A stretch of 64,000 bases of DNA from NCBI GenBank assembly GCA_944325895.1, contig CALVCA010000001.1:91165-155164 (forward strand), in the 5' to 3' direction. Positions 1-58,305 of this stretch are shown here, one piece after another (positions within the stretch are counted from its first letter, which is position 1; the number at the start of each line of letters is the position of its first letter). The stretch comes from Candidatus Gastranaerophilales bacterium. Lineage in GTDB: Bacteria > Cyanobacteriota > Vampirovibrionia > Gastranaerophilales > Gastranaerophilaceae. The translations under genes and the position numbers were made by a program. Below the pieces are notes generated by a model. The model saw only the letters and a program-made list of their open reading frames with translations. It was not told the origin of the DNA and made no database searches.

Positions 1-160
1 TTATTATGTGTTTGTCAAAAATTTGCAGCAGATTATTTTTGGCACTTTCATCAGGATTGCTTTGTAATACGGCAATAGCTTGTTCTGCTTTTTTACGTTC
101 TTTTTGATTCAAACTTATTGCACTGAAATTTATTGAATTTTTAATTGGACTTATCAACAT
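1..160 (-). CDS. N-terminal 53 codons of a second mTERF-like paralog; the gene runs off the window start
   Basis: ATG at 158-160 (minus strand). The translation MLISPIKNSINFSAISLNQKERKKAEQAIAVLQSNPDESAKNNLLQIFDKHII parallels the N-terminus of the upstream 695-aa ORF. Nt 1-44 are identical to nt 2066-2109. It overlaps the stop of the upstream gene by 20 nt. Confidence 0.55.
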   Translation of the reverse strand, partial: MLISPIKNSINFSAISLNQKERKKAEQAIAVLQSNPDESAKNNLLQIFDKHII

Positions 161-2228
161 ATATTATTTGCTTTCCGAAATTTTCTTCACAAAAATCATG
201 TGTAAATTTTATCAATTCATCAGCTATATAGCCGTCATCAGGGATTTTAAAATTATAATTATAATCAGGATTGGAATTGATAAAACTTATTAAATTACTT
301 TTGCAATCATCGGGTTTTAATTTACTAAGTCTGATATTATTAGCTTTACTTATTAAAAGTCTGAGCATATCTAAATAAAAATATTCATCCTTGTTTTTAG
401 GGATATGCAAACTTTCAAAAGAAAATCCGCTTAACAATTTATAATATTTCTGCAAAGAATATTTATGATATACAGTTTCCGGTTTCATCTGCATAAAAAC
501 AGGTTCTCGCAATACTTTTTGTCTAATCTTGTCATCTTTAAACAGTTTTACAAGATTTTCAACATTATTAATTACTGTTTGAGGCTGCAGAGTTGCCACA
601 CTCGGCATTGCTAAAAGGATTTTAGCCATTTCTTCCTTTGTTTTCCCAAACCAATCTGCTAATTCCGTTACGTTATTTATAACCTTTTCAGGCTTTAAAA
701 CTAATATAGACGGGAACTTCACACCTGATTCAATATAATCTTCCTTTGATAAACTTAACGCATTTACAACAGTATCAATATTTGATTTAATACTTTCGAC
801 AGAACAAGAAACTAAATTAGGGCACTTTTTTAAAGCTTTTAAAATATTATTTCTCGGAGTGTTTAATTCTTTTGCCAATAAATCTATTTTAGCATCTATA
901 GTTTTTGAATTAAGAAGTAAAATATTAGTTGATTTTCTTAATAATTTAATTGTTTGCTCAGGGCTGATTTCAAGAATTTCTGAAATATGTTCTTTATTAT
1001 TTTTTATAGTTTCAATATCCCGAGCAAACAAAATAGGAGTAACCATAAAGACTTTGCCAATATTATTGGTTCCCAATATTTCGGAAAATGCTTTTGCTTT
1101 TTTCTCAACTAAATCGGGTGTAAAAGAAAATACTTCAGGAAACTTAACTCCCGCATTAATAAATTGTTCTCTTGTAATACCTAAAATTTCAGATGACGCA
1201 TCTGCATATTTAGAAAGATTTTCAGCGGATATCATAAACAACCTGGGAGCAACTAAAATACAACCTATATAATTTTTTAAAGGCAAATTCAATACTTTTG
1301 CACCGTTTTCAGCCCTATTGTATAAACAATCCGGAGTATATGTCAATATTGATGGATTTCTTTCAATCATAGAAATATATTTTTCTCTTGTAACGCCAAA
1401 CTTTTCAGCCCCTGTATCAATTTTATTTTCGATAACTTCAGGATTAATACAGATTAATCGGGGATTACTAAAAAAAAGTTTACTGTTATTTAATACTTTG
1501 GATGAGTTTTCAATATTATACTTAATTTTTTCAACCGGTAAAGATAAAAGCATTTGATTATGAATTAACAAATCAACTATAGCGTCAATATCCTTGTCAC
1601 GCCAAATTACATCCTGCAATTTTTTAGCCTTTACGTAATATTTTTCAGGCAAAACATTTTTTTCTTTTTGAATTTTTGCTATAGCGATTTTAGCTTGCTG
1701 CTGTTTTGTTTGATTATATTTATCATGAAAAGCCATATACCGCAATGCTTCATATTGACTTGAAGTTAAATTTACACTTACTTTATCAAGCTTATCTTTG
1801 TAATGCAAAACTTTTTCTTCATCAGGAGCAGATGCATACTGCGGCAGGTCATCTTCTGTTAATAATTTTAATTTATGCCCCGAAATTAAACATTCGTTTG
1901 AATATTTACTATGTACAATATTGGATTTAAAATCCGGCTTGTTTACAAATTCAATTATTCCGTCCAAAGTCATTTTTTGATCTATTGCGTCAAATAATGC
2001 AGTATAATACGCTTGAAGATAATCATCTTTTTGCGGAGAAAAAGAATATTTTAATTCAACTTCTTTTATTATGTGTTTGTCAAAAATTTGCAGCAGATTA
2101 TTTTTGGCAGCTTGAGAATCAGATGAATAAACCTTCTTTAAATTTTTATCGGCTTCAGTCTTTTCTTTATTATTCAAGCTTATTGAGGTAAAATTTACAG
2201 GAGTATAGTTTATATTTTTAAGAAACAT
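141..2228 (-). CDS. mTERF-like helical-repeat protein (695 aa), cytoplasmic, putative nucleic-acid binding
   Basis: Long ORF with at least eight consecutive 34-36-residue units, e.g. LGITREQFINAGVKFPEVFSFTPDLVEKKAKAFSEI and FGKTKEEMAKILLAMPSVATLQPQTVINNVENLVKL. These fit the mTERF motif pattern (LG-s-x-E-i-xx-ll-xxx-P-x-il-xx-s-x-e-x-l-xx-k-v-xx-l). No signal peptide. Confidence 0.7.
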   Translation of the reverse strand: MFLKNINYTPVNFTSISLNNKEKTEADKNLKKVYSSDSQAAKNNLLQIFDKHIIKEVELKYSFSPQKDDYLQAYYTALFDAIDQKMTLDGIIEFVNKPDFKSNIVHSKYSNECLISGHKLKLLTEDDLPQYASAPDEEKVLHYKDKLDKVSVNLTSSQYEALRYMAFHDKYNQTKQQQAKIAIAKIQKEKNVLPEKYYVKAKKLQDVIWRDKDIDAIVDLLIHNQMLLSLPVEKIKYNIENSSKVLNNSKLFFSNPRLICINPEVIENKIDTGAEKFGVTREKYISMIERNPSILTYTPDCLYNRAENGAKVLNLPLKNYIGCILVAPRLFMISAENLSKYADASSEILGITREQFINAGVKFPEVFSFTPDLVEKKAKAFSEILGTNNIGKVFMVTPILFARDIETIKNNKEHISEILEISPEQTIKLLRKSTNILLLNSKTIDAKIDLLAKELNTPRNNILKALKKCPNLVSCSVESIKSNIDTVVNALSLSKEDYIESGVKFPSILVLKPEKVINNVTELADWFGKTKEEMAKILLAMPSVATLQPQTVINNVENLVKLFKDDKIRQKVLREPVFMQMKPETVYHKYSLQKYYKLLSGFSFESLHIPKNKDEYFYLDMLRLLISKANNIRLSKLKPDDCKSNLISFINSNPDYNYNFKIPDDGYIADELIKFTHDFCEENFGKQIIYVDKSN

Positions 2229-2268
2229 ATTGATTTAAAATATAAACATAGAATATTTTGCTTTATTT

Positions 2269-4152: not shown

Positions 4153-4236
4153 AAACATATTATAATACAAAAAGCAAAACTTCATTAACTTGATTTATAA
4201 AAAAAATTATGAGATAATATGTTGGGAGGAGCAGAC

Positions 4237-4725
4237 ATGAGTATAGCCACAAAAATTAGTACCAAAAAGCTGGATGAGATATTACAAATTTATGATTACA
4301 AAAAATCCAATCTTATAGCAATATTGCAAAAGGTTCAGGAAGAATACAGATACCTTCCCGAAGAAGCAATGATTTACATCGGAACAAAAATAGAAGGGCT
4401 TTCGCCTGCAACAGTGTTAGGGGTTGCGACATTTTATGCACAATTTTCGCTGGAACCTAAAGGAAAATTTGAAATAAAAGTTTGTGATGGTACAGCATGC
4501 CATGTTAGAGGTTCTATGCCTGTATTGAACGCAATAAGACAAAAACTTAACATGAAAGAAGGACAATTAACAAGCGAAAACGGGTTATTTTCATTAGAAA
4601 CCGTAAGTTGCCTTGGAGCCTGCGGTTTAGCACCGGTTGTTGTTATTAATGAAAAAGTATATCCGCAAATGACATCAGATGCAATAAATATAGTGTTGGA
4701 TACCCTTTTAAAAGAGGAAGAATAA
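4237..4725 (+). CDS. hydC: [FeFe]-hydrogenase NuoE-like 2Fe-2S subunit (HydC/HndA type)
   Basis: Thioredoxin-like 2Fe-2S ferredoxin pattern CDGTACHVRG...VSCLGACGLAP. GGAGG Shine-Dalgarno (SD) before ATG 4237. First gene of a tightly packed three-gene operon. Confidence 0.9.
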   Translation: MSIATKISTKKLDEILQIYDYKKSNLIAILQKVQEEYRYLPEEAMIYIGTKIEGLSPATVLGVATFYAQFSLEPKGKFEIKVCDGTACHVRGSMPVLNAIRQKLNMKEGQLTSENGLFSLETVSCLGACGLAPVVVINEKVYPQMTSDAINIVLDTLLKEEE

Positions 4726-4726
4726 T

Positions 4727-6589
4727 ATGGAAAAAACAAGTTTGAATATAGATATAAAAGAAGAACAAAAACAAGCACGGGAAGAAATTAAAAAACAGGG
4801 GCTGAGAGTTTTGGTATGTGCCGGGACAGGCTGTGTTGCAAACGGTGCTTTAGGGGTTATTGAAAGATTTAAAGAGCTTGGTGCAGATGTATCTGTTTTA
4901 AGCGACTACGATAAAATGACAATAGTTCCGACCGGCTGCCACGGATTTTGCGAACAGGGTGTTTTGGTAAGCATTCCTGACAAACACGTCACATATGTAA
5001 AAGTACGTTACAAAGACGTTGAAGAAATATATGAAACCCATATAAGAGGCGGAAAGCCTGTAGAAAGATTACTATACACTGATCCTCAGACTAAAGAACA
5101 TATTTTTAAAGATGAAGATATAAATTTCTACGCAAAACAGAGTCGTACTGCACTTAAAAATTGCGGGAATATCAATGCGGAAGATATAGACGAAGCAATA
5201 GCCGTCAGAGGTTACGAAGCACTATACAATGTATTGGAAGAAAATAATCCCGATGCTGTCATAGAAACAATCGAAAAATCAGGGTTGCGGGGCAGAGGCG
5301 GCGGCGGATTTCCGACAGGAAGAAAATGGAGATTTACGGCTGCAAACAGAGGCGGAAAATCATACGTTGTATGTAACGGAGATGAAGGCGATCCTGGAGC
5401 TTTTATGGACAGAAGCATTATGGAAGGCGACCCGCATAAATTGCTTGAAGGAATGGCTATAGCAGCTTTTGCAATCGGTGCGGATGAAGGATATATATAT
5501 GTCAGGGCTGAATACCCGCTGGCAATTAAACGGCTTAAAAAAGCCATAAAAGATGCCGAAGCACGTAATTTTTTAGGCAAAAACATTATGGGATCCGATT
5601 TTTCTTTTACAATACACATAAAAGAAGGAGCCGGAGCATTTGTATGCGGTGAAGAAACAGCTTTAATCGCTTCCATAGAAGGTGAAAGAGGAATGCCAAG
5701 ACCTAAACCGCCGTTTCCAGCAAATAAAGGTTTGTTTGGCAGACCTACGCTCATTAATAACGTTGAAACACTTGCCAATGTACCGGTAATTATGCTTAAC
5801 GGTGCTGATTGGTTTGCTAAAATGGGTACCGAAACATCAAAAGGTACAAAAACATTTGCTCTAACAGGAGAAGTAAACAATACCGGTTTAATAGAAGTTC
5901 CCATGGGAACAACATTAAGACAGATAATTTTTGATATAGGCGGCGGAATACGAGGCGGTAAGAAGTTTAAGGCTGTACAAATCGGAGGACCTTCGGGCGG
6001 ATGTCTGACTGAAGAACATTTGGATTTACCGATGGATTATGACAGTCTTATAAAAGCAGGTGCTATGGTCGGTTCGGGCGGTTTGGTCGTAATGGCTGAA
6101 GATACCTGTATGGTTGAAGTTGCAAGATTTTTCATGAACTTTACCAAAAATGAAAGCTGCGGCAAATGCGTTCCTTGCCGTGAAGGCACAAAAAATATGC
6201 TTAAAATCCTTGAAAAAATTGTTCAAGGAAAAGGTGAACTTTCTGATTTGGATTTACTAGAAGAACTGGCAAGAACCGTTAAAGAAGGTTCTCTGTGCGG
6301 TTTGGGTAAAACAGCACCAAATCCGGTTCTTTCAACACTAAAATATTTCAAAGACGAATATATTGCCCACATTGTGGACAAAAAATGTCCTGCAGGTGTT
6401 TGTACGGCCTTAAAAACTGTTGTTATCAACGAAGAAAAATGCAAAGGCTGCACAAAATGTGCAAGGACATGTCCTGTAGGTGCAATTGAAGGTACTGTAA
6501 AACAGCCGCACCACATTAATCAAGACAAATGTATCAAATGCGAAGCATGTTTAAAAAGTTGTCCGTTTAAGGCAATAGAATTAAAATAG
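4727..6589 (+). CDS. hydB: [FeFe]-hydrogenase NuoF-like flavoprotein subunit (HydB/HndC type), NAD(H)/FMN binding
   Basis: N-terminal 2Fe-2S module (CAGTGC...TGCHGFCEQG). GRGGGGFPTGRKW FMN/NADH motif. ESCGKCVPCREG 4Fe-4S. C-terminal 2x4Fe-4S ferredoxin (CKGCTKCARTCP, CIKCEACLKSCP). Confidence 0.92.
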   Translation: MEKTSLNIDIKEEQKQAREEIKKQGLRVLVCAGTGCVANGALGVIERFKELGADVSVLSDYDKMTIVPTGCHGFCEQGVLVSIPDKHVTYVKVRYKDVEEIYETHIRGGKPVERLLYTDPQTKEHIFKDEDINFYAKQSRTALKNCGNINAEDIDEAIAVRGYEALYNVLEENNPDAVIETIEKSGLRGRGGGGFPTGRKWRFTAANRGGKSYVVCNGDEGDPGAFMDRSIMEGDPHKLLEGMAIAAFAIGADEGYIYVRAEYPLAIKRLKKAIKDAEARNFLGKNIMGSDFSFTIHIKEGAGAFVCGEETALIASIEGERGMPRPKPPFPANKGLFGRPTLINNVETLANVPVIMLNGADWFAKMGTETSKGTKTFALTGEVNNTGLIEVPMGTTLRQIIFDIGGGIRGGKKFKAVQIGGPSGGCLTEEHLDLPMDYDSLIKAGAMVGSGGLVVMAEDTCMVEVARFFMNFTKNESCGKCVPCREGTKNMLKILEKIVQGKGELSDLDLLEELARTVKEGSLCGLGKTAPNPVLSTLKYFKDEYIAHIVDKKCPAGVCTALKTVVINEEKCKGCTKCARTCPVGAIEGTVKQPHHINQDKCIKCEACLKSCPFKAIELK

Positions 6590-6602
6590 AAGGAATAAGA
6601 GA

Positions 6603-8345
6603 ATGACAAATACATTATTTATAGACGGTAAAGAAGTTGAATACACTGACGAACCCAATTTGTTGGAAGTAATCAGAAAAGCGGGGATGAACGTACCGAC
6701 ATTCTGTTACAGACCTGACTTAACATCATTTGGAGCATGCAGAATGTGCGTTGTTGAAGTGGAAGGCAGAGGAATACAATCTTCTTGTACTATGCCGCCG
6801 GAACCGGGATTAAAAATTCACCTCAACACTGAAAAGACAAGACGTATCAGAAAAACCGTTTTGGAATTGCTTTTAGCAAACCATGACAGAAGCTGCTTAA
6901 CCTGCGAAAAATCAGGTGATTGCGAACTTCAAAAATATTCTGAAGAATACGGTATTAAAAAAATACGCTATGCAGATAAAGATGAATATTTACCTATAGA
7001 TGATACATCACCGTCAATAGTAAGAGATCCGAACAAATGCATTCTCTGCGGAGCATGTGTTAGAGCTTGCACGGAATTTCAAGGACATTCGGTTTTGGGT
7101 TTTGTAAACAGAGGTTCAAAAACCGTTGTTGAGCCGATAAGACCGCTTGGACAATCAGATTGCGTAAACTGCGGACAGTGTGTTGCTGTATGCCCGACAG
7201 GTGCTTTAACGATAAAATCAAATATTGATGACGTATGGTCAAGAATTACGGATCCGACAAAACGGGTAATTGCTCACATAGCACCGTCTGTACGTGTAGC
7301 TTTGGGTGAAATGTTCGGTTTGGAACCCGGGGAAAATACTATAGGCAAAATTGATGCAGCTCTTAGAAAAATAGGGTTTGACATGGTATTTGACACAAAT
7401 TTCGGTGCTGATTTAACAATAATGGAAGAAGCAACCGAATTTTTAGACAGATTAAAAACAGGTAAAAATTTGCCGTTATTTACATCGTGCTGTCCTGCCT
7501 GGATAAAATATATTGAAACTATGCATCCTGATATGCTTAATCACTTATCAAGCTGCAAATCACCAATGTCTATGCAGTCGCCTGTTTTAGTTGATTTAGT
7601 ACCTAAAATGCTCGGTATTGACAGAAAAGATTTAACGGTTGTAGCTATAATGCCTTGTACAGCCAAAAAATTTGAGGCACTTCGTCCTGAAATGTCACAA
7701 AACGGCGTTCAAGATACAGATTTTGTCCTGACAACAAAAGAATTAGGAAAAATGATTAAAACAGCCGGAATAGATTTTAATGCACTTGAACCTGAAAAAC
7801 CCGATTCACCGTTCGGAGAATATTCAGGAGCAGGAACAATTTTCGGTGCTTCCGGCGGTGTTGCCGAAGCTGCTGTCAGAACTGCATATGAATTTGCAAC
7901 GGGTGAAATTTTAAAAGATGTTGATATAAAAGAACTTAGAGGAACAACCAACAGGTGCCGTGACGTTGAAATTGATATCAAAGGCACAAAAGTTGTTGTC
8001 CGGGTTGTATCAACACTAAAAGAAGCTGAAAAATCTTTAAAAGAGATAAAATCAGGCAAGGCACAGTTCCAAATGCTGGAAGTTATGGCATGCCCCGGCG
8101 GGTGTATCAATGGCGGCGGGCAGCCGACAAGCTGCAACAATTCAAAAATCAAAGCCGAACGTGCTGCAGGACTCTACAAAGAAGACAGAGAGCTGTCTGA
8201 GAGAAAATCTCATATGAATTCATCAGTACAAAAACTTTATCAGGAATTTTTAGAACACCCGAATTCACATAAAGCACATGAATTACTGCATACTGTTTAT
8301 ACAGACAGATTAAAAAATTCTTACAGAAATATAGAGAGTGTCTAG
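6603..8345 (+). CDS. hydA: [FeFe]-hydrogenase catalytic subunit HydA (NuoG-like N-terminus plus H-cluster domain)
   Basis: H-cluster signatures TSCCPAW, MPCTAKKFE and EVMACPGGCINGGGQP. N-terminal 2Fe-2S, a His-ligated 4Fe-4S and two ferredoxin-type CxxCxxCxxxCP motifs. Confidence 0.94.
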   Translation: MTNTLFIDGKEVEYTDEPNLLEVIRKAGMNVPTFCYRPDLTSFGACRMCVVEVEGRGIQSSCTMPPEPGLKIHLNTEKTRRIRKTVLELLLANHDRSCLTCEKSGDCELQKYSEEYGIKKIRYADKDEYLPIDDTSPSIVRDPNKCILCGACVRACTEFQGHSVLGFVNRGSKTVVEPIRPLGQSDCVNCGQCVAVCPTGALTIKSNIDDVWSRITDPTKRVIAHIAPSVRVALGEMFGLEPGENTIGKIDAALRKIGFDMVFDTNFGADLTIMEEATEFLDRLKTGKNLPLFTSCCPAWIKYIETMHPDMLNHLSSCKSPMSMQSPVLVDLVPKMLGIDRKDLTVVAIMPCTAKKFEALRPEMSQNGVQDTDFVLTTKELGKMIKTAGIDFNALEPEKPDSPFGEYSGAGTIFGASGGVAEAAVRTAYEFATGEILKDVDIKELRGTTNRCRDVEIDIKGTKVVVRVVSTLKEAEKSLKEIKSGKAQFQMLEVMACPGGCINGGGQPTSCNNSKIKAERAAGLYKEDRELSERKSHMNSSVQKLYQEFLEHPNSHKAHELLHTVYTDRLKNSYRNIESV

Positions 8346-14326: not shown

Positions 14327-14506
14327 TATTTCTTCACAAAGACGCAATATTTTTCAGAATATGACGTTAATGTATATATGAAGTATATTGACATGATGTG
14401 CTGATTAATCTTAAAGAAACGTAATAATGCGGGATTTTAAGACATGCTCTTGGTATAATAAGAAGTGTATGAACAGCAAACATTTACAAGAACTGAAAGG
14501 ACGAAT

Positions 14507-17500
14507 ATGAAACTTGATGTTAAACGGCAAAAAAGAGTAATTGCGTCATTGTTGACAACATTTTTCTTAATGCAGCAGTCAATGGTCGTACCGGCTATGG
14601 CAACAGAAATAGGCGGCGGAAACGGCGGCTGGGTTCAAGGCAACAACGGTGTATTTGACATTCACCCGACAGCAGTAAATGGAGATGTTGGTTTCAGACA
14701 ATATGAGAAGTTTAATTTAAGTAAAGGTGACATAGCAAACCTTCTATTCAATTATGGAAACAATATTGAAACATTCATAAACATGGTAGACAGCCAAATC
14801 AACATTAACGGTATATTAAATACCATAAAAGACGGCGGTATTGGCGGAAAAGCTGTTTTCATATCGCCTGAAGGTATGGTTGTCGGAGCAAGCGGTGTAT
14901 TAAACGTAGGTTCATTATCGGTAATGACACCGACACAAAAAGATTACGAAGCATTCAAAGCAGAACCGTATCCGGGGGCATTGTCAAGTATTGAGAACAG
15001 TCAGGGTACGGGAGTTGTCAGAATAGACGGCAAGGTATTTACGGAAGGCGGAGTTGATATATCAGCAGCAGCGATTTCCGTAGGAAATACCGGATCTATA
15101 ATGTCAGGGCTTAAAGATCTTACAAAAATCACATCAGAAGCACAAGCAAACAGATTATTCAATCAATTAGTAAATACAGATAACATAACATCAGGTTCTT
15201 CATTAACGAACGAGGATGGCAGAATAGTAATAAGAGCATACGGAGACACACCGGGACTATTACAGCCGACCCAACCGACAAATCCGGGCGGTTCGGTAGT
15301 GGTCAAACCGCGTCCAAGCAATTCACAAAGTACAGGAAGTCAATCATCGACAAATGTATTTGTAAGCAAGATTACAGGCGGCAGTGACAATACTGAAGGT
15401 GTAAACATTGCAGGTAACATCAAAAACTTCGGTACCGGCGACATTTCAATAGAAAATGAAGATGTTTCAGGTATCAAGCTGGCAAGTACCGGAAATATTT
15501 CCAATCAGGGAAGTATAACATTAACAAACTCCGGTGAAGACGGCATAGTAACCGAAGGGACAATTACAGGCGGCAAAGGCACACTTACGATAAACAACAC
15601 CGGTGAAGGCGGCATTGATATTGCAAGTTCAAGCAAACTTACAAATACCGGTGCAATTAATATTACAAACACCGGCAGCGACGGCATAAATATAAGCGGT
15701 GCCGTAAACGGCAAAGGCGGTGCTGTTTCTGTAAATAACAAAGGTACAAAAGGCATAACTATCGGTAACACCGGTAAAATATCAAACAGCGGAAATATAA
15801 CCGTTACAAATTCAGGTAAAAACGGAATTAATTTAGCCGGCAGAATAACAGGTTCAAACGGAACAGTAACATTAAACAACAGCGGAGCCGGCGGGTTAAA
15901 TGTAAGCGGCACTGTTTCAAACAGCGGTAATACAAAATTAACCAATACAGCAGGCGGATTATTTGTTTCAGGTACCGTATCAGGCAGCAACGGCAATATG
16001 CAATTGACTAACAGAGGCGGAAACGGAACAAATATCAGCGGCACAGTAACTAACAGCGGTGCAATTAATGTTAACAATACATCTGGCGGTATATACGTAT
16101 CAGGAAACGTTACTGGCAAAGGCGGTGACGTAACATTAACAAATTCCGGAACTTCCGGTATTGATATAGCAAAAGGCGGAATTGTTTCAAATACCGGCAA
16201 TATAAATATTTTAAACAGCGGTGCTAACGGCATAAATATAGACGGTACCGTAACTGGTAACTCAATCGGTAACTTAATAATTAGCGATTTGGAAGCCGGC
16301 GGTATACGTATCGGAAATCTTGGCAGAGTTTCTAATAAAGGACTTGTATCGCTTATCAACCAAGGTAACGGCGGAATAGACGTTGCAGGAAACGTTTCCA
16401 GCACTCAAGGTGTTGTCGGAGTAAATAATACCGGCAGTAACGGGATAAATATTTCCGGCAATATAAACGCTTCAGGTGTTGAAATGCAAAATACAGGTGC
16501 CGGCGGAATAAATATCCAGGGTCAAGTTTCAGGCAAAAACGTATCTGTTAACAACTCAAATTCAAATATAACATTAGGAAGTGCCGATACTGAAAACAAC
16601 ATTGTTTCAAACGGCGGTGACATTAATATTCAAATTACAAACGGCAGTCTGTTAAATGCAGGTTTTGACACAACACAACTTGCTGCAACAAACGGCGGTA
16701 ACCTTATTATTAACGTTAAAGACGGCACCATCGGTGAAGAAGTCGGCGGAGGATGCGTTGGCGGTGTATGTACCGGTGTTGATCCTAACTCAAGAGATTT
16801 AACAAAATCTATTAACGTAAATGTTTCAGGCAGCGTTACTGCTAATACAGAACAAGTTAATAATTCTAACGATTTAGTTATTAACATGGCTAGTATCGAT
16901 AATGATTTAAGAGTAAATCGTATCAGTGCTGACGGCAGAGTTATTCTTCTTGCCGATTCAAAAGACAGCGGTGCTAAACCTTTCTCTATTTTGAATGCTA
17001 ACAGCAACAATGATCAAGCTAATATTGAAGGCAAAGGTATTTCTTTAATAGCTAGCGGCAGTATCGGTGAAGAAAATAACCGTTTAACATTTGACCAAAC
17101 TGCAAACAGCAATGAATACGGTGTTGATCTCTTAGCTGATCAAGGAAGTATTTATTTGAAAGGATTCAGCGATAACCACGCTCAAACTAATGTTTGCACA
17201 ATTATATCTAGACACGGAAGCGTTGATTTGGAATTCTCCGGTAATGTCAACATCGAAGAAGTTACTGCTGCTAAAACAATCAAAATTGTTACTAGAGGCA
17301 AAGTATTAGAAATCCAAAATTTAGGTACAGCTCCTAATACTCCTGTTGACTACTTCGGTGAAAACAACAGTATAGCCCCTGAAAACGTTGAGTTGACTGC
17401 TTTGGACATCAATGATAACACAAGATTAGATCCTAACAGAGCTCAAAGTGAAGTAAGGGTTGTTAATGCTAGAGTTCAGGCGGACAATGATCCTAATACT

Positions 17501-19126
17501 CAGGAAATAACAATCATAGCTGATGATGTCTATATCGACGGTAAACATTTTATAAATGATGATGAAAATAAAGTTGTTATTAACGGCAAAGAATACATCC
17601 AATTCACAGTAGAAGATGATGACAGTACAAACCCTGTCAACAGCACGGATGATAACGAAGTTACGGTCGGTACAAGACCGGTAAGACCGGAAGATGTATT
17701 AGAAATCGATCGTGATGAAGACGAAAGAAATTACTATTACGAAGACGAATTACCATTAGACAACGACAGCGATGCTGACGCCGATGCAGATGCAGACGCT
17801 GACGCAGACGCCGATGCCGACGCTGATGCCGACGCAGACGCTGATGCTGATGCTGACGCAGACGCCGATGCAGATGCAGATGCTGACGCTGATGCAGACG
17901 CAGATGCCGATGCAGATGCCGATGCAGATGCCGACGCTGATGCCGATGCAGATGCTGACGCCGATGCTGATGCTGATGCAGATGCTGACGCTGACGCCGA
18001 TGCTGACGCTGACGCTGACGCAGACGCTGATGCTGATGCCGACGCAGATGCTGATGCAGACGCAGACGCCGATGCTGACGCTGATGCTGATGCAGATGCT
18101 GACGCCGATGCAGATGCTGATGCTGATGCTGACGCTGACGCAGATGCTGATGCTGATGCAGACGCAGACGCAGATGCTGACGCTGACGCCGATGCAGACG
18201 CCGACGCAGACGCAGACGCCGACGCTGATGCAGATGCTGATGCAGATGCCGACGCTGATGCAGATGCCGACGCTGACGCAGACGCTGACGCAGATGCTGA
18301 TGCAGATGCTGACGCTGATGCTGACGCAGATGCAGACGCAGATGCCGACGCTGACGCAGACGCAGACGCCGATGCTGACGCCGACGCAGATGCTGACGCT
18401 GATGCTGACGCTGACGCAGACGCTGACGCAGATGCTGATGCAGATGCCGACGCAGACGCCGATGCTGACGCCGACGCCGATGCTGACGCTGATGCTGACG
18501 CTGACGCAGACGCTGACGCAGATGCTGATGCAGATGCTGATGCCGATGCAGACGCAGACGCCGACGCAGATGCCGACGCTGACGCTGACGCAGACGCTGA
18601 CGCTGACGCAGATGCTGATGCTGACGCTGATGCAGATGCTGACGCAGATGCTGATGCTGATGCTGACGCTGATGCTGATGCAGACGCTGACGCTGATGCA
18701 GATGCCGACGCTGACTCTGATGATGATGCGGAATATGAAGATGATTTAGGCAAACAAACTTATATACAACGTAAGCTTCTTGACGAAAACATTCCGTCAA
18801 TAGATAAACGTCAGTATATGAGGTTCGAGGTTGCCGGCAACAGAAACCCTGTTGAATTACAGCAGAATACTCAAATGGATTCATTATTAGACATCTCAAG
18901 AGGCGGTATAGCTGTTAAACACCATAATCAATTGAAAGTCGGCGATGTTGTTCCGGTACAAATTACATACGGTGATTTAAATATTAATGCAGATGTAAAA
19001 GTTGTAACCGCAACAGATGTCCGGGCAGGTGCAGAATTTGTTAACCTCGACAGGGCAACCGCAAACAAACTTCTCTATATGAACATACTGTTAGAAGAAG
19101 CGAACGGTACAATATCAATGAGATAA
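14507..19126 (+). CDS. Two-partner-secretion (TpsA/filamentous-haemagglutinin-like) exoprotein with beta-helix repeats, a (Asp-Ala)157 tract and a C-terminal PilZ domain
   Basis: SD AAAGGA before ATG 14507. Extended signal peptide ending VPAMA. TPS domain ([19 protein letters not shown]...INGILNT...[27 protein letters not shown]). G/N/T/S-rich repeats. DA tract 17771-18712. PilZ motifs RQYMR and DISRGG. Confidence 0.85.
15430..16560 (+). repeat. In-frame degenerate ~19-21-codon repeats encoding parallel beta-helix-type units
   Basis: Reiterated TNSG-x-x-GINI-x-G-x-VTG-x-x-G-x-VTLNN units, e.g. [27 protein letters not shown] and [17 protein letters not shown]. Confidence 0.7.
17771..18712 (+). 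repeat. 942-nt period-6 tract (GAY GCN)157 encoding uninterrupted Asp-Ala dipeptides
   Basis: Read directly and in frame with the TpsA ORF. Third codon positions vary between units. One 90-nt tandem duplication: 18361-18450 vs 18451-18540, 88/90 identical. Confidence 0.95.
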
Positions 19127-19135
19127 TAATAAGTT

Positions 19136-19163
19136 AAAAGCCCGGCCAGGCCGGGCTTTTTTT
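19136..19163. terminator. Bidirectional intrinsic terminator
   Basis: AAAAGCCCGGC-cag-GCCGGGCTTTTTTT lies between the convergent TpsA gene and the 590-aa gene. Confidence 0.85.
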
Positions 19164-19181
19164 ATGCAATTATTAACTATA

Positions 19182-20954
19182 TTAACTATATATTCGGTTA
19201 TGCAATTGCCTGTAGTTTGCTAATATTTCTTCTGTACGCTGAGAAATCACTGTTGACTGTTCAACAGCTTGTTCAGGATTAAATTGGGCATACATAGCTC
19301 CTGCCGTATTTAATGCTCCTGCTATTTTACCGGCAAAAGCCATAAAATCACCATTTGCTTTCTCTTTTTTAGCTTTTTTAGCAGCATCCGCAGCTTCTGT
19401 GCCTGCAGCACCGCCTTGTGCAGCTTCGGCACCGTTAGCCGGAACAGGTTTTTCCGTACCTTTAACAGCACTTTCTCTTGCCGATGTTAAACCTTTTTCA
19501 AGTTCGTCGCCCGTGACACCTTTTGCCGCAAGATCTGATTGTGCCGCATTAAATGCTGTTTCCGCTTTATTAATATTACTTTGTCCCTGCGTCAGGGCAT
19601 CGTTCATTAACGGATTATTTCCGCCTGTCTTACGTGCCGTTTTTACCCCTTGACGCATTTCTTTCATAGTTGCACCATCAAGTGTACCTCTTGTTTGATT
19701 CATAGACATCTGATTAATTTGGTCTTTACTGAATCCTGCCTCCTGCAGATTTTCCATATTAGATTTCGCAAGTTGTTTTGCGGCACCTTTTTCCAGTCCT
19801 TGCTGCATAGCTTGCGTTGCCTGTTCTTTTATTCCTTCAAAACCTTTTGCCATCTGCTGCGTTCCTTTTGCCGCAGACATACCCGTCATCACAGCGGCTC
19901 CCGCATTTGTTAATGCACCTGCTATATCTCCGTTTGCTATTGAACAAGCGGATTTTGTAACTGATGCGGCGGTTGAACCGTAATTACCTATTGTTTCAAC
20001 AGTTGAACCCGTTGCCTCTACAGGTACACTGGCTGATATTAATGCCGTTCCGACTGCAACCGTTGCAGGATATACACTGGCCGCCATTGCTTGACCTAAC
20101 GCTCGCATTCCTTTACCGACCAATTGGACACCTTGACCTGTCGTTGATGTATATTGCGATATCTCTCCGACTTTATTCGCTACATTCATAACTTTATCCG
20201 CAGTCGATTGATTTGCATCAAGTGTCTTCTGCGTCTTATTTACCGTTGAGATATAAACTTTACATGTATGCGACATTGTCCGAATTGATCTGTTGTTCGA
20301 TACCTGTATTTTATTAACTTTACCTGTATATTTGGCAATTTTTGCCGATGAATCATTCATCTGTGCTCCTAATGAAGAAATAGTCCTTCCTGCACTTGAA
20401 CCGCCGGTTATCATTGAACCGCCGGGATCACCGTCGCCGAAAAATGAACTCTGAGCTTGTTGCTCTGCCATTATTGATTCTATCTGCGATGCAAATGTTG
20501 CCATTCTTGTATTTTCTTGTTCTATTTCACGGGCCATTTTCGCCATTTCTTTGTTATTCAGCTCAACTTCACGCTGTGAACGCAGCATTGTTTTCTTCAG
20601 TGCTGACTCACTTTTTTTCGTTGTCCGTGCCAGGCTGCTGCTTTCATCTTGGATTGAATTTACCTGCTTTGTACCTTTTTGTGCCTGCGTTGTTCCCGCT
20701 CTTGCACTCGCCGCCTGACTTTGAGCACCTGAAATAGCCCGTTTCCCGTCATCTACCGTGTATTTTTCCTTTTGACTTCCCCTTACACTGTTTGAGTTAT
20801 TGGCTTTATTGGAGTTTGGGCGTATGTTAAATATTGACCCGTCTTTGGTCATATTTATATTTTGTGCGGAAACGTGACGAACCTGCGTGCCTCGTTGCTG
20901 CATGATCTTTTGCAAAGTGACTCTATTTAATTGTCCTAAGCCGTTTATGCCCAT
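19182..20954 (-). CDS. Orphan Ala/Gly/Gln/Thr/Ser-rich low-complexity protein (590 aa) with a coiled-coil segment and central hydrophobic stretches
   Basis: Long ORF, visibly more GC-rich than its neighbours. Coiled-coil-like LRSQREVELNNKEMAKMAREIEQENTRMATFASQIESIMAEQQAQ. Hydrophobic AASVYPATVAVGTALISASVPV and GALTNAGAAVMTGMSAA. No signal peptide and no family recognised. Confidence 0.65.
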   Translation of the reverse strand: MGINGLGQLNRVTLQKIMQQRGTQVRHVSAQNINMTKDGSIFNIRPNSNKANNSNSVRGSQKEKYTVDDGKRAISGAQSQAASARAGTTQAQKGTKQVNSIQDESSSLARTTKKSESALKKTMLRSQREVELNNKEMAKMAREIEQENTRMATFASQIESIMAEQQAQSSFFGDGDPGGSMITGGSSAGRTISSLGAQMNDSSAKIAKYTGKVNKIQVSNNRSIRTMSHTCKVYISTVNKTQKTLDANQSTADKVMNVANKVGEISQYTSTTGQGVQLVGKGMRALGQAMAASVYPATVAVGTALISASVPVEATGSTVETIGNYGSTAASVTKSACSIANGDIAGALTNAGAAVMTGMSAAKGTQQMAKGFEGIKEQATQAMQQGLEKGAAKQLAKSNMENLQEAGFSKDQINQMSMNQTRGTLDGATMKEMRQGVKTARKTGGNNPLMNDALTQGQSNINKAETAFNAAQSDLAAKGVTGDELEKGLTSARESAVKGTEKPVPANGAEAAQGGAAGTEAADAAKKAKKEKANGDFMAFAGKIAGALNTAGAMYAQFNPEQAVEQSTVISQRTEEILANYRQLHNRIYS

Positions 20955-21959: not shown

Positions 21960-22128
21960 TTTATTTGACTTTTTGTTTTGTTTAGTTTAATATTATATTT
22001 GCAGCCGCAGACAATTAGCGGAAGTCAATCTTCCTTAATAAGCCAGCTAATCGAGGTTACATGTAGTCGAAGTGTAAGATTTTGCGGTTGTGTTGCAAAA
22101 TCTTTTTTTATTAGTAAAGGAGCGAAAA
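21960..22128 (+). promoter_or_regulatory. Probable ribosomal protein L10 leader with attenuator terminator (22076-22109)
   Basis: A relatively GC-rich untranslated leader lies directly upstream of rplJ. Hairpin AAGATTTTGC / GCAAAATCTT plus a T-run sits immediately before the rplJ SD. This matches the known L10(L12)4 autoregulatory leader arrangement. Confidence 0.45.
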
Positions 22129-28380: not shown

Positions 28381-29493
28381 ATGCAAAAATTATTACAAAA
28401 AAATGATTTAAAAACAATTAAAATGTCGGATATCAGCATAGCATATCCTGATTTAAAAAATTCAGGAGCAACAAAATCCGACATAATAGGCAACTGGCTG
28501 ATAGATTGGATAAAACAAGGTCTTAATTCCAAAAAGCTGGTGCCGAATACCCTGCTGCCATCAAAAGCCGAATTTGCATATGCATTCGGAGTAAGTGTCG
28601 GAACAATACAGAATGCTTTAAGGTACATTGAAGATAGGGGTTATGTTGAATCAAAGCAACGTATCGGAACAATCATTAAAGATAAAAACTCTCAAGTATT
28701 CAAAAAATTAACTTCAAAACGAGAAATAGCCATTGAAAAAATAAAAAAATATATCATATCAAACAACCTTAAACCAAATGATTCATTACCGTCATCACGG
28801 GTATTAGCTGAAATAACGAATTGTTCGGCTAATACGACAAGACTTGCTTTAGAATATCTTTGTAAAGAAAAATATCTTAAACACAAAAAAACAAATGAAA
28901 CAGGCTGGTTTATACAAAGCACTGATTTTAGCATAGATGAAGAAAGCAAAAACGAAACACTTGTAAAAAAGACAGAAAATGATTTAAAAGAATATATAAC
29001 GCAAAATTTAAAAATAGGCGACAGAATGCCGTCACACGAAGAATTGACCAAGAAAATGCAAGTAAGTATAAAAACAGTACACGATGCGTTGCAGAATTTG
29101 GTCAACGAAGGTATACTTCTAACACGCAGAGGGCGATACGGAACATCCGTCATCAAAATGCCGGATCAATCAGCCGATGAAACATCAATTTTTGCACCTG
29201 CACAAGACGCTGCATTCTATTACTATGAAAAAACACAAAACACCATTAGAAAAATGATTTCTGAAAACTATGAAATAGGATCTAAACTTCCGTCAATCAG
29301 TGAACTTTCAACAAAGCTGGATTTAAGCCACAACACAATAAGAAAAGCACTGCAAAATTTGGCCAAAGAAGGTTATTTAGCATTTTCAAGAGGTCGTTAC
29401 GGCGGAACATTTGTAATAGATATTCCGGAAGAACAAAGCTTCAAATGGATAGCAGTCAATCCGAAATATGCCCAGTTATACAAAACCCCTTAA
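28381..29493 (+). CDS. Protein composed of four tandem GntR-type winged helix-turn-helix domains (370 aa)
   Basis: Four copies of the GntR HTH pattern: LPSKAEFAYAFGVSVGTIQNALRYIEDRGYVESKQRIGTII; LPSSRVLAEITNCSANTTRLALEYLCKEKYLKHKK; MPSHEELTKKMQVSIKTVHDALQNLVNEGILLTRRGRYGTSV; LPSISELSTKLDLSHNTIRKALQNLAKEGYLAFSRGRYGGTFV. The start codon is uncertain because no clear SD is present. Confidence 0.75.
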   Translation: MQKLLQKNDLKTIKMSDISIAYPDLKNSGATKSDIIGNWLIDWIKQGLNSKKLVPNTLLPSKAEFAYAFGVSVGTIQNALRYIEDRGYVESKQRIGTIIKDKNSQVFKKLTSKREIAIEKIKKYIISNNLKPNDSLPSSRVLAEITNCSANTTRLALEYLCKEKYLKHKKTNETGWFIQSTDFSIDEESKNETLVKKTENDLKEYITQNLKIGDRMPSHEELTKKMQVSIKTVHDALQNLVNEGILLTRRGRYGTSVIKMPDQSADETSIFAPAQDAAFYYYEKTQNTIRKMISENYEIGSKLPSISELSTKLDLSHNTIRKALQNLAKEGYLAFSRGRYGGTFVIDIPEEQSFKWIAVNPKYAQLYKTP

Positions 29494-40189: not shown

Positions 40190-42139
40190 ATGAAAAAGGT
40201 GATCACTAAAAAAATATTAATGAGTACAATTGCAGCAATGACTTTATGCTGTACAAGTGCATATGCAGCCGGGCTTGATTATCAGCAAGTAATAGAATCA
40301 GTACCCGGAGCGACAAGGGATGCCGGACAGAATATTAAACACGAATTAGATACGCGTGAATTTGAGCAAAAGCGTCAAGATGCACGAACAGAATATGAGA
40401 AGTATCAAGAGCATCGTGAGGATCAAGGTACAGGCGGGAAAAGCACCGTTATTCAGGGAGCACCCGAAGGCAGCGGCGAGGTTATAAGAGCTAAAGTTGA
40501 AGAGCTTGAATCTAAAGGTGTTTTTGTTAACACAATTGAAGTTGCCGCATCAGAAATTTTAACAAGAGAAGAAATTGAACCGATTATATCAAAATATGCA
40601 GGCAAAAACCTTTTTATAACAGATATTCAACAAATGATTGATGAAATCAATGCTCTGTACGCTAAAAAAGGTTTTGTAACGGCAAGAGCATATCTTCCCG
40701 AACAAGAAGTAGCAAACGGGGCAATATATGTCGGCTTAATCGAAAGCCGTATCGGAAAAGTTACAATAGACGGCAACAGATGGACAAAATCCGACTATAT
40801 TTTAGACAGAATTCCCGATAAAGAACATCAATTATTTGATATTGTAAAACTGGAAAAAGATGTACTTGATTTTAACCGTTACAATGAAGGTGTAAAATTA
40901 TCAGCAAACCTAAAAGCAGGTGAAAAAGAAGGTACAACAGACATTGAATTGTCAGCGGAAGAAAAATTCCCGTTCCACATAATCGGTATGATGGACAATG
41001 CCGGCCGTTATTCAACAGGTAAATTGAGAGGCGGTCCGATGCTTGTTGCAGACAGCTTGTTCGGCTATCGTGACAGAATGCAGTTAGGGTCGTATTTCAG
41101 CGGCGGCTCTGTCAGCCCGTTCTTTGATTATAATATTCCCGTTAACAAATATGACGGACGTGTAGGTTTCAGCTACGGGTCAACATTTGCTAATGTTAAA
41201 TGGGGTCCGTATTCAAATTTAGGACTTAACACCCGCTCTTATATCTATTCATTGTACTATTCACAACCGATTAAAAGAACTCAAGGATTTGAGCTGAAAG
41301 GGTACGGGTCATTAAACTACAAACGTGTATTCACAGGCATGGATGCCTTAAGACCGTTTACAGGAAGTTCAGAGCTTGATTTGGATCAGGTAACAAGTGC
41401 AGATGTAGGGTTTAACATCAGAAAAGACACTAAACGTGGTATTTGGTACTTGAACCAAAACGCATCAATGGCATTTCCGATATTTGACAGTCAATCAAGC
41501 TATTTCAAATATTCAGGCGGATTGTTAAGATTACACGACTTTTCGCACGGTATATACGGACAAATACGTGCTAACTATCAAGTAATACCTAACAGCAAAG
41601 ATATACCGTACATCGATCAATTCCAAACAGGCGGTTTGGTAACTGTCAGAGGTTACTCAGAAGGTTTGTTAATCGGTAAAAACGGTTACTTTGTAAGTGC
41701 TGATTTAATATTCCCGCTTTTACCAAGACAAATTACAAGCCCGAGATCAGGCGAAAAAATTCCGTTTTTGGGTAAATACGTCCAAGGTGTAGTATTTGCG
41801 GATCAAGCCGGTGTATTCCCGTCAACAAACCGTGATGTATATGACGGAAGCTACTTTTTGGCATCACTCGGTATGGGGTTAAGAGTACAACTGCCCGGTG
41901 ATTTGAGTGCAAGACTCTACTGGGGCTATCCGCTAATTAATAACGCATATGAATATGACCGTCAAATGGGGCGTTTCCACTTCGAACTTGTGTTTGAACC
42001 CAGTATAGATAAATTGTTAAAAAGAAATTCCGTAGCTGCAAAAGTAGTTCCGCAGGTACAAAAAGAAATTCAGGAAGAATATATTAACAATTACGACGAT
42101 GTAAGACACTACGACTACTTCTATGACGGTGCATTGTAA
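40190..42139 (+). CDS. ShlB/FhaC/HecB-family TpsB outer-membrane transporter (POTRA plus beta-barrel)
   Basis: Signal peptide. POTRA region (ILTREEIEPIISKYAGKNLFITDIQQMIDEINALYAKKGFVTARAYLPEQEVANGAIYVGLIESRIGKVTIDGN). C-terminal barrel ending ...GRFHFELVF... region. Confidence 0.85.
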   Translation: MKKVITKKILMSTIAAMTLCCTSAYAAGLDYQQVIESVPGATRDAGQNIKHELDTREFEQKRQDARTEYEKYQEHREDQGTGGKSTVIQGAPEGSGEVIRAKVEELESKGVFVNTIEVAASEILTREEIEPIISKYAGKNLFITDIQQMIDEINALYAKKGFVTARAYLPEQEVANGAIYVGLIESRIGKVTIDGNRWTKSDYILDRIPDKEHQLFDIVKLEKDVLDFNRYNEGVKLSANLKAGEKEGTTDIELSAEEKFPFHIIGMMDNAGRYSTGKLRGGPMLVADSLFGYRDRMQLGSYFSGGSVSPFFDYNIPVNKYDGRVGFSYGSTFANVKWGPYSNLGLNTRSYIYSLYYSQPIKRTQGFELKGYGSLNYKRVFTGMDALRPFTGSSELDLDQVTSADVGFNIRKDTKRGIWYLNQNASMAFPIFDSQSSYFKYSGGLLRLHDFSHGIYGQIRANYQVIPNSKDIPYIDQFQTGGLVTVRGYSEGLLIGKNGYFVSADLIFPLLPRQITSPRSGEKIPFLGKYVQGVVFADQAGVFPSTNRDVYDGSYFLASLGMGLRVQLPGDLSARLYWGYPLINNAYEYDRQMGRFHFELVFEPSIDKLLKRNSVAAKVVPQVQKEIQEEYINNYDDVRHYDYFYDGAL

Positions 42140-44754: not shown

Positions 44755-44827
44755 GCGCTTGTAGCTCAGCAGGTAGAGCACTCCCCTTTTAAGGGATAGG
44801 TCGCGCGTTCGAATCGCGCCAAGCGCA
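44755..44827 (+). tRNA. tRNA-Lys (anticodon UUU)
   Basis: Manual cloverleaf: acceptor GCGCTTG/CAAGCGC; D arm GCTC-AGCAGGTA-GAGC; anticodon arm CTCCC-CTTTTAA-GGGAT with one C:U mismatch at 27:43; T arm GCGCG-TTCGAAT-CGCGC; discriminator A. No encoded CCA. Confidence 0.92.
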
Positions 44828-58289: not shown

Positions 58290-58305
58290 GAAAGGATGAA
58301 ATAAA

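Follow-up and report, generated by a model that had tools for sequence, protein, structure and literature searches.

Some proteins exported by two-partner secretion (TPS), the TpsA proteins, stay on their transporter by means of a small globular periplasmic domain at the C-terminus, as described for HMW1 and HxuA of Haemophilus influenzae (PMC5422565). In Pseudomonas aeruginosa, the type Vb adhesin CdrA of the CdrA/CdrB and LapG/LapD system is likewise retained through a periplasmic C-terminal tail, which is cut by LapG when cyclic di-GMP (c-di-GMP) is low (PMC5422565). The coupling to c-di-GMP is indirect in that system, as cytoplasmic LapD senses the nucleotide and sequesters the periplasmic protease LapG. 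Large to giant beta-helical proteins with an N-terminal secretion domain also make up the LktA family of adhesins (NCBIfam NF012204; Fusobacterium necrophorum LktA), the definition of which holds no C-terminal PilZ domain. Among c-di-GMP receptors PilZ is the archetype, and it is regarded as strictly cytoplasmic; the described receptors, such as MapZ/PA4608, Alg44 and YcgR, all reside in the cytoplasm, and a preprint census of PilZ receptors treats them as cytoplasmic. Here we analysed a 64,000-nucleotide stretch of DNA from a Candidatus Gastranaerophilales bacterium (GenBank assembly GCA_944325895.1, contig CALVCA010000001.1, positions 91,165 to 155,164; the whole stretch is called the window below). 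It contains an open reading frame (ORF) of 1539 amino acids (aa), the TpsA-PilZ gene, that joins an LktA-type TPS domain, a beta-helix-type passenger and a long Asp-Ala spacer to a C-terminal PilZ domain.

The original prediction, made from the letters of the window, had divided this ORF into five parts, namely an extended Sec signal peptide, a TPS domain, G/N/T/S-rich beta-helix-type repeats, 157 uninterrupted Asp-Ala dipeptides and a PilZ domain. This anatomy held, and all of the sequence strings quoted in its support are present in the protein. The features of the gene are as follows.

14507..19126, plus strand: TpsA-like gene with a C-terminal PilZ domain, 1539 aa, from the ORF list and uninterrupted orthologous ORFs (n = 55)
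14507..14602, plus strand: Sec-type signal peptide, aa 1-32, with the basic n-region KLDVKRQKR and an AMA|TE cleavage site, from inspection and hydropathy; kept in the N-terminal alignment
14654..15088, plus strand: predicted TPS secretion domain of the LktA/FxxPxG subtype, aa 50-194, from NCBIfam NF012204, an AlphaFold2 (AF2) model and Foldseek
15245..15355, plus strand: low-complexity segment rich in P/S/T/Q, aa 247-283, with a predicted local distance difference test (pLDDT) score below 50 at model residues 219-248
15494..16666, plus strand: about 18 G/N/I/S/T-rich beta-helix-type coils, aa 330-720, from composition and autocorrelation
16664..17731, plus strand: conserved C-terminal passenger module, aa 720-1075, with CVGGVC at aa 750-755, from orthologue identity at full coverage
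17675..17740, plus strand: family-wide pre-linker motif (...ERNYYY), aa 1057-1078, preceding the linker in the paralogues examined
17771..18712, plus strand: (Asp-Ala)157 spacer, aa 1089-1402, from Tandem Repeats Finder and codon analysis
18749..18775, plus strand: conserved post-linker segment GKQTYIQRK, leading into PilZ, from alignments
18806..19072, plus strand: predicted PilZ domain, aa 1434-1522, from Pfam PF07238, an AF2 model, Foldseek and motifs

The hydrophobic region (h-region) of the signal peptide spans 22 residues and is weakly hydrophobic (mean Kyte-Doolittle value 1.48). Beyond the signal peptide, hydropathy analysis found no stop-transfer segment, the only other hydrophobic stretches being the beta-strands of the TPS domain. 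That domain, aa 50-194, matched NCBIfam NF012204, 'leukotoxin LktA family filamentous adhesin (adhes_FxxPxG)', with 154.6 bits against a cut-off of 60. The AF2 model of aa 33-331 had a mean pLDDT of 85.7, and the top 22 PDB matches found for it by Foldseek were all TPS domains (HpmA, EtpA, HxuA, Fha30, HMW1), with HpmA the best (E = 2e-3, probability 1.00); a sequence search of the domain against PDB gave chance matches only. The residues SPEGM, originally taken for an altered NPNGI box, are better explained as part of FISPEG (aa 118-123), the FxxPxG hallmark of the LktA subfamily. No NPN[LG] motif (NPNL/NPNGI) occurs in the protein, and FISPEG sits at the equivalent position. These results indicate that the N-terminus belongs to the LktA-type family and, as modelled, has a TPS-type fold. 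Many orthologues, including those at loci L001, L005, L019, L077, L079 and L081, have a Tat-like twin arginine ahead of the h-region (QRRVIAS, KRRIVAS); the window protein has KRVIAS where many TpsA orthologues have QRRVIAS.

At the other end of the protein, Pfam PF07238 matched aa 1434-1522 with 33 bits (E = 8e-8; cut-off 22.5). PilZ was the sole Pfam family reported in the 1539 residues, and no repeats of the Fil_haemagg type were among the matches. Both c-di-GMP motifs are intact, as had been claimed: RxxxR reads RQYMR (aa 1435-1439, nucleotides 18809-18823) and DxSxxG reads DISRGG (aa 1462-1467, nucleotides 18890-18907). The AF2 model of the last 125 residues (mean pLDDT 79.8, >90 across the barrel) forms a six-stranded beta-barrel with a C-terminal helix, as in canonical PilZ proteins, and its top Foldseek matches were PilZ domains bound to c-di-GMP: MapZ (5xly_B, E = 2e-5), Alg44, YcgR, PA4608 and BcsA. 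A search of PDB with a PilZ hidden Markov model gave weak matches to Alg44 only (E = 0.2), in which RxxxR and [D/N]xSxxG align with the Alg44 motifs; here, as for the TPS domain, it was the comparison of folds that decided the matter. Among 61 aligned PilZ sequences, D19, K20, R21, R25, S50, R51, G52 and G53 are invariant. Together, these results show that the C-terminus has the PilZ motifs and, in the model, the PilZ fold, with a predicted c-di-GMP site. PilZ is also the most conserved region of the protein and the beta-helix coils are the least, with median identities to the window protein of 75% for PilZ, 52% for the TPS domain, 41% for the C-terminal passenger module and 29% for the coils.

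The coils that make up the bulk of the passenger, described at the outset as G/N/T/S-rich beta-helix-type repeats, fit that description. Residues 330-720 consist of 21% G, 17% N and 11% each of I, S and T, and the coil period is approximately 22 aa, with an autocorrelation peak at 44 that exceeded those of all 200 shuffled sequences. The whole protein contains three cysteines (aa 750, 755 and 897), all in the C-terminal passenger module.

The Asp-Ala tract that follows was confirmed exactly, with 157 dipeptides, or 314 residues, without interruption. Tandem Repeats Finder reported a period of 6 and 157.8 copies, and the DNA matches were just 80%. The codons are mixed (GAT 79, GAC 78, GCT 73, GCA 54 and GCC 30), and no more than 3 identical hexamers occur in a row. 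Perfect as protein and scrambled as DNA, the tract carries the mark of selection for the peptide sequence and of a DNA that resists slippage. Among relatives, the linker is swapped for DT, DS, DA, DN, EP, DP, GP or TP(E/D)P repeats, or for no repeat, and PilZ lies 71 or more residues after ...ERNYYY (median 284). The shortest linkers measure 71-94 residues; the largest printed distance, 1085, may be a mis-assignment of the motif. Repeat numbers of 244, 245 and 266 units were counted at three loci that are 92-94% identical outside the repeat.

This spacer resembles the Ser-Asp R-region stalks of the staphylococcal MSCRAMMs ClfA, ClfB, SdrC and SdrD, in which a long, perfectly alternating acidic dipeptide tract, also encoded by mixed synonymous codons, lies between the binding region and the cell-envelope anchor. 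The NCBIfam staphylococcal Sdr/Clf models covered the Asp-Ala tract only and scored far below their cut-offs (126.9-176.3 bits against 999-2500; 176 against 2500), with no homology beyond the repeat. There is no LPXTG motif here, the dipeptide is Asp-Ala, and the host is a diderm with other means of secretion and anchoring. Spurious antisense ORFs (SASASA..., RHLHQ...) arise over the D-x repeat, in the window at 17661..18899 and 17737..18753 on the minus strand. In two members of the same TpsA family (P0238 and P0239), a long acidic D-rich linker is followed by a short basic aromatic C-terminus (...RRDAAKKRKFDFRWWFR) that replaces PilZ, which suggests that the C-terminal modules of the family are exchangeable.

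To place the window protein in its family, we scanned one genome per GTDB species (292 relatives) and analysed 80 kept loci together with the window. Gastranaerophilales is an order within Candidatus Melainabacteria. A word-indexed homologue search had returned proteins of <1000 aa only, and the full-length family was recovered from genome DNA and an exhaustive profile search. We found 55 uninterrupted ORFs of 950-1800 aa that carry both FxxPxG and PilZ, and a further 35 PilZ ends at contig edges, where the assemblies are broken within the repeat. The gene order is conserved: a MiaB-like gene, a flippase, one or more TpsA-PilZ genes, a convergent gene of the 590-aa type and FabI. In several genomes (for example L069, L077, L081, L085 and L086) two or three tandem TpsA-PilZ genes occupy the same position.

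The possibility that the window ORF is an assembly chimera, in which two genes have been artificially joined over a collapsed repeat, had been raised with the original prediction. Public short-read assemblies do often break or carry N-gaps right in the D-x repeat (L001-L005, with contig ends at L006, L008, L010-L013 and others). Gene callers then report proteins of 100-220 aa that start MDSDTDTD..., or PilZ proteins that start at the Met within RQYMRF; the nearest homologues of the PilZ part are of this size, called from metagenome-assembled genomes of Gastranaerophilales, many of them starting MDSDTDTD.... However, at syntenic loci the TpsA-like ORF enters a D-T/D-S repeat, reaches a scaffold gap and is followed by the same repeat and then PilZ, and D-x repeat lies on both sides of every gap examined. 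The scrambled codons also leave the tract non-repetitive as DNA. One of the 55 uninterrupted ORFs (L027) lies on the HiFi chromosome OZ006972.1, where it encodes 1354 aa with a D-x tract of 532 residues that includes 257 Asp-Ala dipeptides. For the family a chimera is thus refuted, and for the window ORF it can practically be discounted. These data confirm that the TpsA-PilZ architecture is real and conserved as a single polypeptide.

Public annotation is badly fragmented at the repeat, which leaves the architecture largely hidden from protein databases. An exact look-up of the 1539-aa protein found no existing record, and public records of such proteins read just 'PilZ domain-containing protein'. 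Nearly all named records come from Candidatus Gastranaerophilales/Gastranaerophilaceae or from generic uncultured gut metagenome-assembled genomes. The original prediction knew of no described TpsA with a PilZ domain, and our literature search bore this out, finding no paper on a TpsA-PilZ fusion or on an exported PilZ. Taken singly, the LktA-type TPS domain, the beta-helix passenger, the dipeptide stalk and the canonical PilZ domain are all familiar; their combination and the proposed compartment are not. LktA itself is from Fusobacteria, whereas the present proteins are from Melainabacteria.

We next considered the PilZ clade as a whole. We searched 1.84 billion representative proteins exhaustively with a profile (E <= 1e-3) and obtained only 230 clusters at 50% identity, the best 150 of which were examined. 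Of these, 55 are long proteins of at least 800 aa (800-6400) with PilZ at the extreme C-terminus. FxxPxG lies near the N-terminus in 41 of the 55, so that at least 41 are TpsA-like, and RxxxR...[DN]xSxxG is retained in 52. The TPS-plus-PilZ architecture, for which the original prediction had proposed a database search, is not confined to the window protein. The longest members, giants of 5000-6400 aa from Gastranaerophilales (P0310, P0318, P0347 and others), have the same FxxPxG TPS N-terminus and C-terminal PilZ domain; one is MDD3236944.1, named by NCBI as 'PilZ domain-containing protein [Candidatus Gastranaerophilales bacterium]'. The giants contain no low-complexity or dipeptide linker, and a conserved module ...NENSFYRLTYKDDKIQ...TKRxxIRF (also ...NENSFYRLTYKDDKIQ..TTTPEF.DIDK) runs directly into PilZ.

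In a further 32 of the 150 clusters, PilZ belongs to a small protein (147-349 aa) that, on inspection and by hydropathy, begins with a Sec-type signal peptide. Its n-region is basic and its h-region strongly hydrophobic; an AxA-type site is seen in many of the 32 and a lipobox-like motif in two. A spacer of 18-217 residues then leads to a PilZ domain with intact RxxxR and [DN]xSxxG. All nine small members tested passed the Pfam PilZ gathering threshold, as did a 2152-aa relative. Within the syntenic locus of relatives, small signal-peptide PilZ genes lie directly downstream of TpsA-PilZ at L069 (10531..11316), L075 (961..1614), L079 (5978..6628) and L086 (8001..8483), and their proteins measure 160-261 aa. 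In the window, no such gene lies between 19126 and 19182. Unlike the cytoplasmic canonical members, PilZ domains of this clade always follow a signal peptide, on a TpsA-like or a small protein, with no later membrane-spanning segment. With the N-terminus exported, a spacer of approximately 20-30 residues is too short for PilZ to stay behind in the cytoplasm. Most simply, the clade functions outside it. As a whole, this PilZ clade looks to be exported. Export of a folded, ligand-loaded PilZ domain by the Tat route was also considered and was rejected for the small paralogues, none of the 32 having RR before the h-region.

We propose that the PilZ domain holds the TPS adhesin in its transporter from the periplasmic side. 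The Sec signal peptide would carry the unfolded chain over the inner membrane, and the FxxPxG TPS domain would dock on a TpsB transporter, through which the passenger would thread out and fold into a beta-helix. The acidic Asp-Ala spacer, which would not fold, may lie in and beyond the pore and project the passenger from the cell. We assign it this role because acidic or proline-rich dipeptide linkers are interchangeable in paralogues and by analogy with the staphylococcal Ser-Asp stalks. The PilZ barrel, once exported from the cytoplasm, would most likely fold in the periplasm and serve as the anchor or stopper that keeps the adhesin on the transporter, the role played in HMW1 and HxuA by a periplasmic C-terminal domain. 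Those anchors are short disulfide-locked loops, whereas the one proposed here is a predicted barrel of approximately 100 aa, free of cysteine, with an intact nucleotide site and, in the window protein, a 314-residue dipeptide spacer before it. We hold the periplasmic-anchor mechanism as a whole tentatively, as the explanation we favour but one that falls somewhat short of being probable; that a TPS-type protein is really exported here, and really ends in PilZ, we regard as far more secure.

Because the residues of the nucleotide site are invariant, we further speculate that anchoring or release could be modulated by an extracytoplasmic ligand, c-di-GMP or a related nucleotide. In the CdrA system the coupling is indirect; here the adhesin bears the c-di-GMP-type receptor domain on its own chain, and the [TP]AAG site of LapG is absent from the whole protein. 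That the clade acts outside the cytoplasm and that nucleotide occupancy decides whether the adhesin is plugged in the TpsB pore or released is a possibility to which we attach low confidence.

The same domain order could be explained by a PilZ domain that comes to rest elsewhere. According to one of the original ideas, PilZ would fold round c-di-GMP before it reaches SecYEG and resist unfolding, the passenger would be displayed outside while the spacer spans both membranes and the periplasm, and a drop in c-di-GMP would release the adhesin. Translocation arrest by ligand-stabilised C-terminal domains is known, for example with dihydrofolate reductase and methotrexate. The c-di-GMP motifs are intact and invariant, PilZ is always the last domain, the weakly hydrophobic h-region is compatible with post-translational export, and the spacer, which has no hydrophobic segments, would reach approximately 110 nm if fully extended (~0.35 nm per residue). 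However, the spacers of the 32 small signal-peptide clusters, from about 18 residues, are too short for an envelope tether, the giants lack any low-complexity linker and the shortest linkers of the TpsA relatives measure only 71-94 residues; prolonged occupation of SecYEG is harmful, and no diguanylate cyclase was seen in the window and related loci. The logic of a stopper or anchor survives from this idea; its cytoplasmic compartment is probably wrong, and arrest of this kind at SecYEG seems to us distinctly unlikely. Were PilZ instead to cross the TpsB pore unfolded and fold outside, it would form the distal tip of an acidic tether, with a ligand that is extracellular and guanine-nucleotide-like or polyanionic, such as released c-di-GMP or extracellular DNA. 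Many TpsA proteins are fully released, and the C-terminus of mature FHA is its distal end; strongly conserved ligand-site motifs, a place beyond a very long, flexible spacer and the lack of a disulfide lock would all suit such a tip. A barrel that folds readily (AF2 pLDDT >90 over the core) would nevertheless tend to fold before the pore, and the small PilZ paralogues, having no TPS domain, should by default stop in the periplasm, which points to a shared periplasmic site. Full secretion, and with it a tip ligand of this sort, we consider unlikely.

Two further ideas of the original prediction concern the nature of the protein itself. The C-terminal half of CdiA waits in the periplasm, and TpsA-PilZ shares with CdiA a TpsA scaffold with a separate C-terminal domain; PilZ could accordingly be cargo that is moved into a neighbouring cell, where it would sequester c-di-GMP or bind a target. 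The C-terminal domain of CdiA-like proteins is variable, whereas PilZ is the most conserved part of this one. A motif scan found no VENN or pretoxin motif, in keeping with what had been noted from the sequence, Pfam gave PilZ with no other family, and the gene is followed by a convergent, conserved 590-aa ORF rather than a small immunity-like one. Stoichiometric sequestration by the few molecules delivered is implausible as well, and we regard cargo delivery as highly improbable. It had also been suggested that the protein is no true TPS substrate, that is, a Sec-only periplasmic protein or one that uses another outer-membrane route, with a TPS-like N-terminus that is simply the start of the beta-helix. 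The Pfam profile proposed as a check, Haemagg_act (PF05860), gave no match to the 1539-aa protein at E <= 1; NPNL and NPNGI are absent, and no TpsB lies within 10 kb in any of 85 related loci. Set against this are the NF012204 score, more than twice its cut-off, the 22 structural matches, a precomputed PF05860 match on five N-terminal homologues and a ShlB-type TpsB with POTRA_2 in the window, for which no other candidate substrate was found among the window ORFs scanned. Overall this suggestion found no support, and we judge it very unlikely.

The transporter in question is the sole TpsB-type protein in the window.

40190..42139, plus strand: TpsB-type transporter with POTRA_2, ShlB and Omp85 matches by Pfam, candidate partner of TpsA-PilZ

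The earlier recognition of this gene as a TpsB was borne out by the POTRA_2 and ShlB matches, and we infer that it is the partner of TpsA-PilZ. Several observations weigh against the periplasmic-anchor mechanism that we favour. A cognate TpsB is usually encoded in the operon of its TpsA, but the candidate lies 21 kb from the TpsA-PilZ gene, as an orphan between rsgA and bioD/bioA, which, like the missing Haemagg_act match and the lack of a TpsB near the related loci, tells against a TPS route. The compartment of PilZ is deduced only from signal peptides that were recognised by eye and by hydropathy. The PilZ domain contains no cysteine and hence no disulfide lock of the kind found in known anchors. 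A pure structural plug would not require an invariant RxxxR and DxSxxG, and linkers of 250-530 residues far exceed what is needed to span a pore. No GGDEF, EAL or HD-GYP gene was found among the window ORFs scanned, and the GG[DE]EF motif occurs 0 times in 1.34 Mb of window and related loci, which is largely one syntenic region and has little bearing on the whole genome. Lastly, c-di-GMP outside the cytoplasm has been claimed in a single report from another phylum, which describes a periplasmic pool in Stenotrophomonas maltophilia (PMC11404848). In favour of the mechanism, that report makes a periplasmic ligand conceivable, as does Candidatus Melainabacteria MEL.A1, a Gastranaerophilales-type genome reported to encode HD-GYP domains (10.1101/2021.11.05.467447).

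If nucleotide occupancy does control retention in this way, TpsA-PilZ would be a protease-free counterpart of the LapD/LapG/CdrA circuit within one polypeptide and would provide direct evidence of extracytoplasmic cyclic-dinucleotide signalling. It would also represent the first PilZ clade to act outside the cytoplasm, with a nucleotide that is either exported or taken up. The retention of the same design across the order implies that the PilZ sensor domain works outside the cytoplasm, and the apparently exported clade is order-wide, with approximately 230 clusters at 50% identity. On one reading, cyclic-dinucleotide sensing extends to the periplasm or cell surface, an idea that so far comes from one report; on another, the fold of a second-messenger receptor has been re-used as an envelope anchor with its binding site kept. 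Either reading would be new. Extracytoplasmic nucleotide sensing, if confirmed, would be categorically new. The locus also offers a tangible way into the study of surface adhesion in Gastranaerophilales, little-studied non-photosynthetic gut relatives of cyanobacteria of which no cultured strain is known to be in wide use.

The immediate surroundings of the gene include three further features.

14496..14501, plus strand: Shine-Dalgarno-like AAAGGA, 5 nucleotides before ATG 14507, read from the sequence
19136..19160: G+C-rich hairpin of 11 pairs between the convergent genes, a likely bidirectional terminator, from a terminator scan
19182..20954, minus strand: 590-aa ORF, convergent with the TpsA-PilZ gene

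The ORF starts at ATG 14507, with an in-frame GTG at 14465 as an alternative that would add 14 residues. Within the gene, promoter and terminator scans gave results at or below shuffle expectation, and an Rfam scan of the window found no c-di-GMP riboswitch or other cis-RNA upstream of it. The sole Rfam matches in the window are an L10 leader (RF00557, 53.6 bits) at 21987..22117 on the plus strand, ahead of rplJ, and a tRNA at 44755..44827 on the plus strand. The 5' neighbours of TpsA-PilZ are a MiaB-like radical-SAM enzyme and a Polysacc_synt flippase; on the 3' side, the convergent 590-aa ORF is followed by FabI and rplJ. A counterpart of the 590-aa ORF (572-681 aa) occupies the same position in every syntenic relative examined. 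Its N-terminal half is coiled-coil-like, and an Ala/Gly-rich, mildly hydrophobic stretch lies at approximately aa 290-315. The searches gave no Pfam family and no PDB sequence match for it, and in NCBIfam only a sub-threshold SMC coiled-coil match of 17 bits. A functional link between this ORF and the adhesin locus is possible.

Elsewhere in the window, SecD and SecF are encoded at 56988..59298. A 695-aa ORF at 141..2228 on the minus strand contains an mTERF domain (PF02536, E = 7e-19), a family known chiefly from eukaryotic organelles. At 28381..29493 on the plus strand, a 370-aa protein matched the GntR-type winged helix at four separate places; such a tandem row of DNA-binding domains is unusual. 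The 1172-aa ORF at 51011..54529 on the plus strand, in which an N-terminal double zinc ribbon (PF12773) is the sole recognisable feature, directly precedes and overlaps a glycogen-synthase-like gene. Finally, a cluster of NuoE-like, NuoF-like and [FeFe]-hydrogenase large-subunit genes at 4219..8345 on the plus strand fits a fermentative gut anaerobe.

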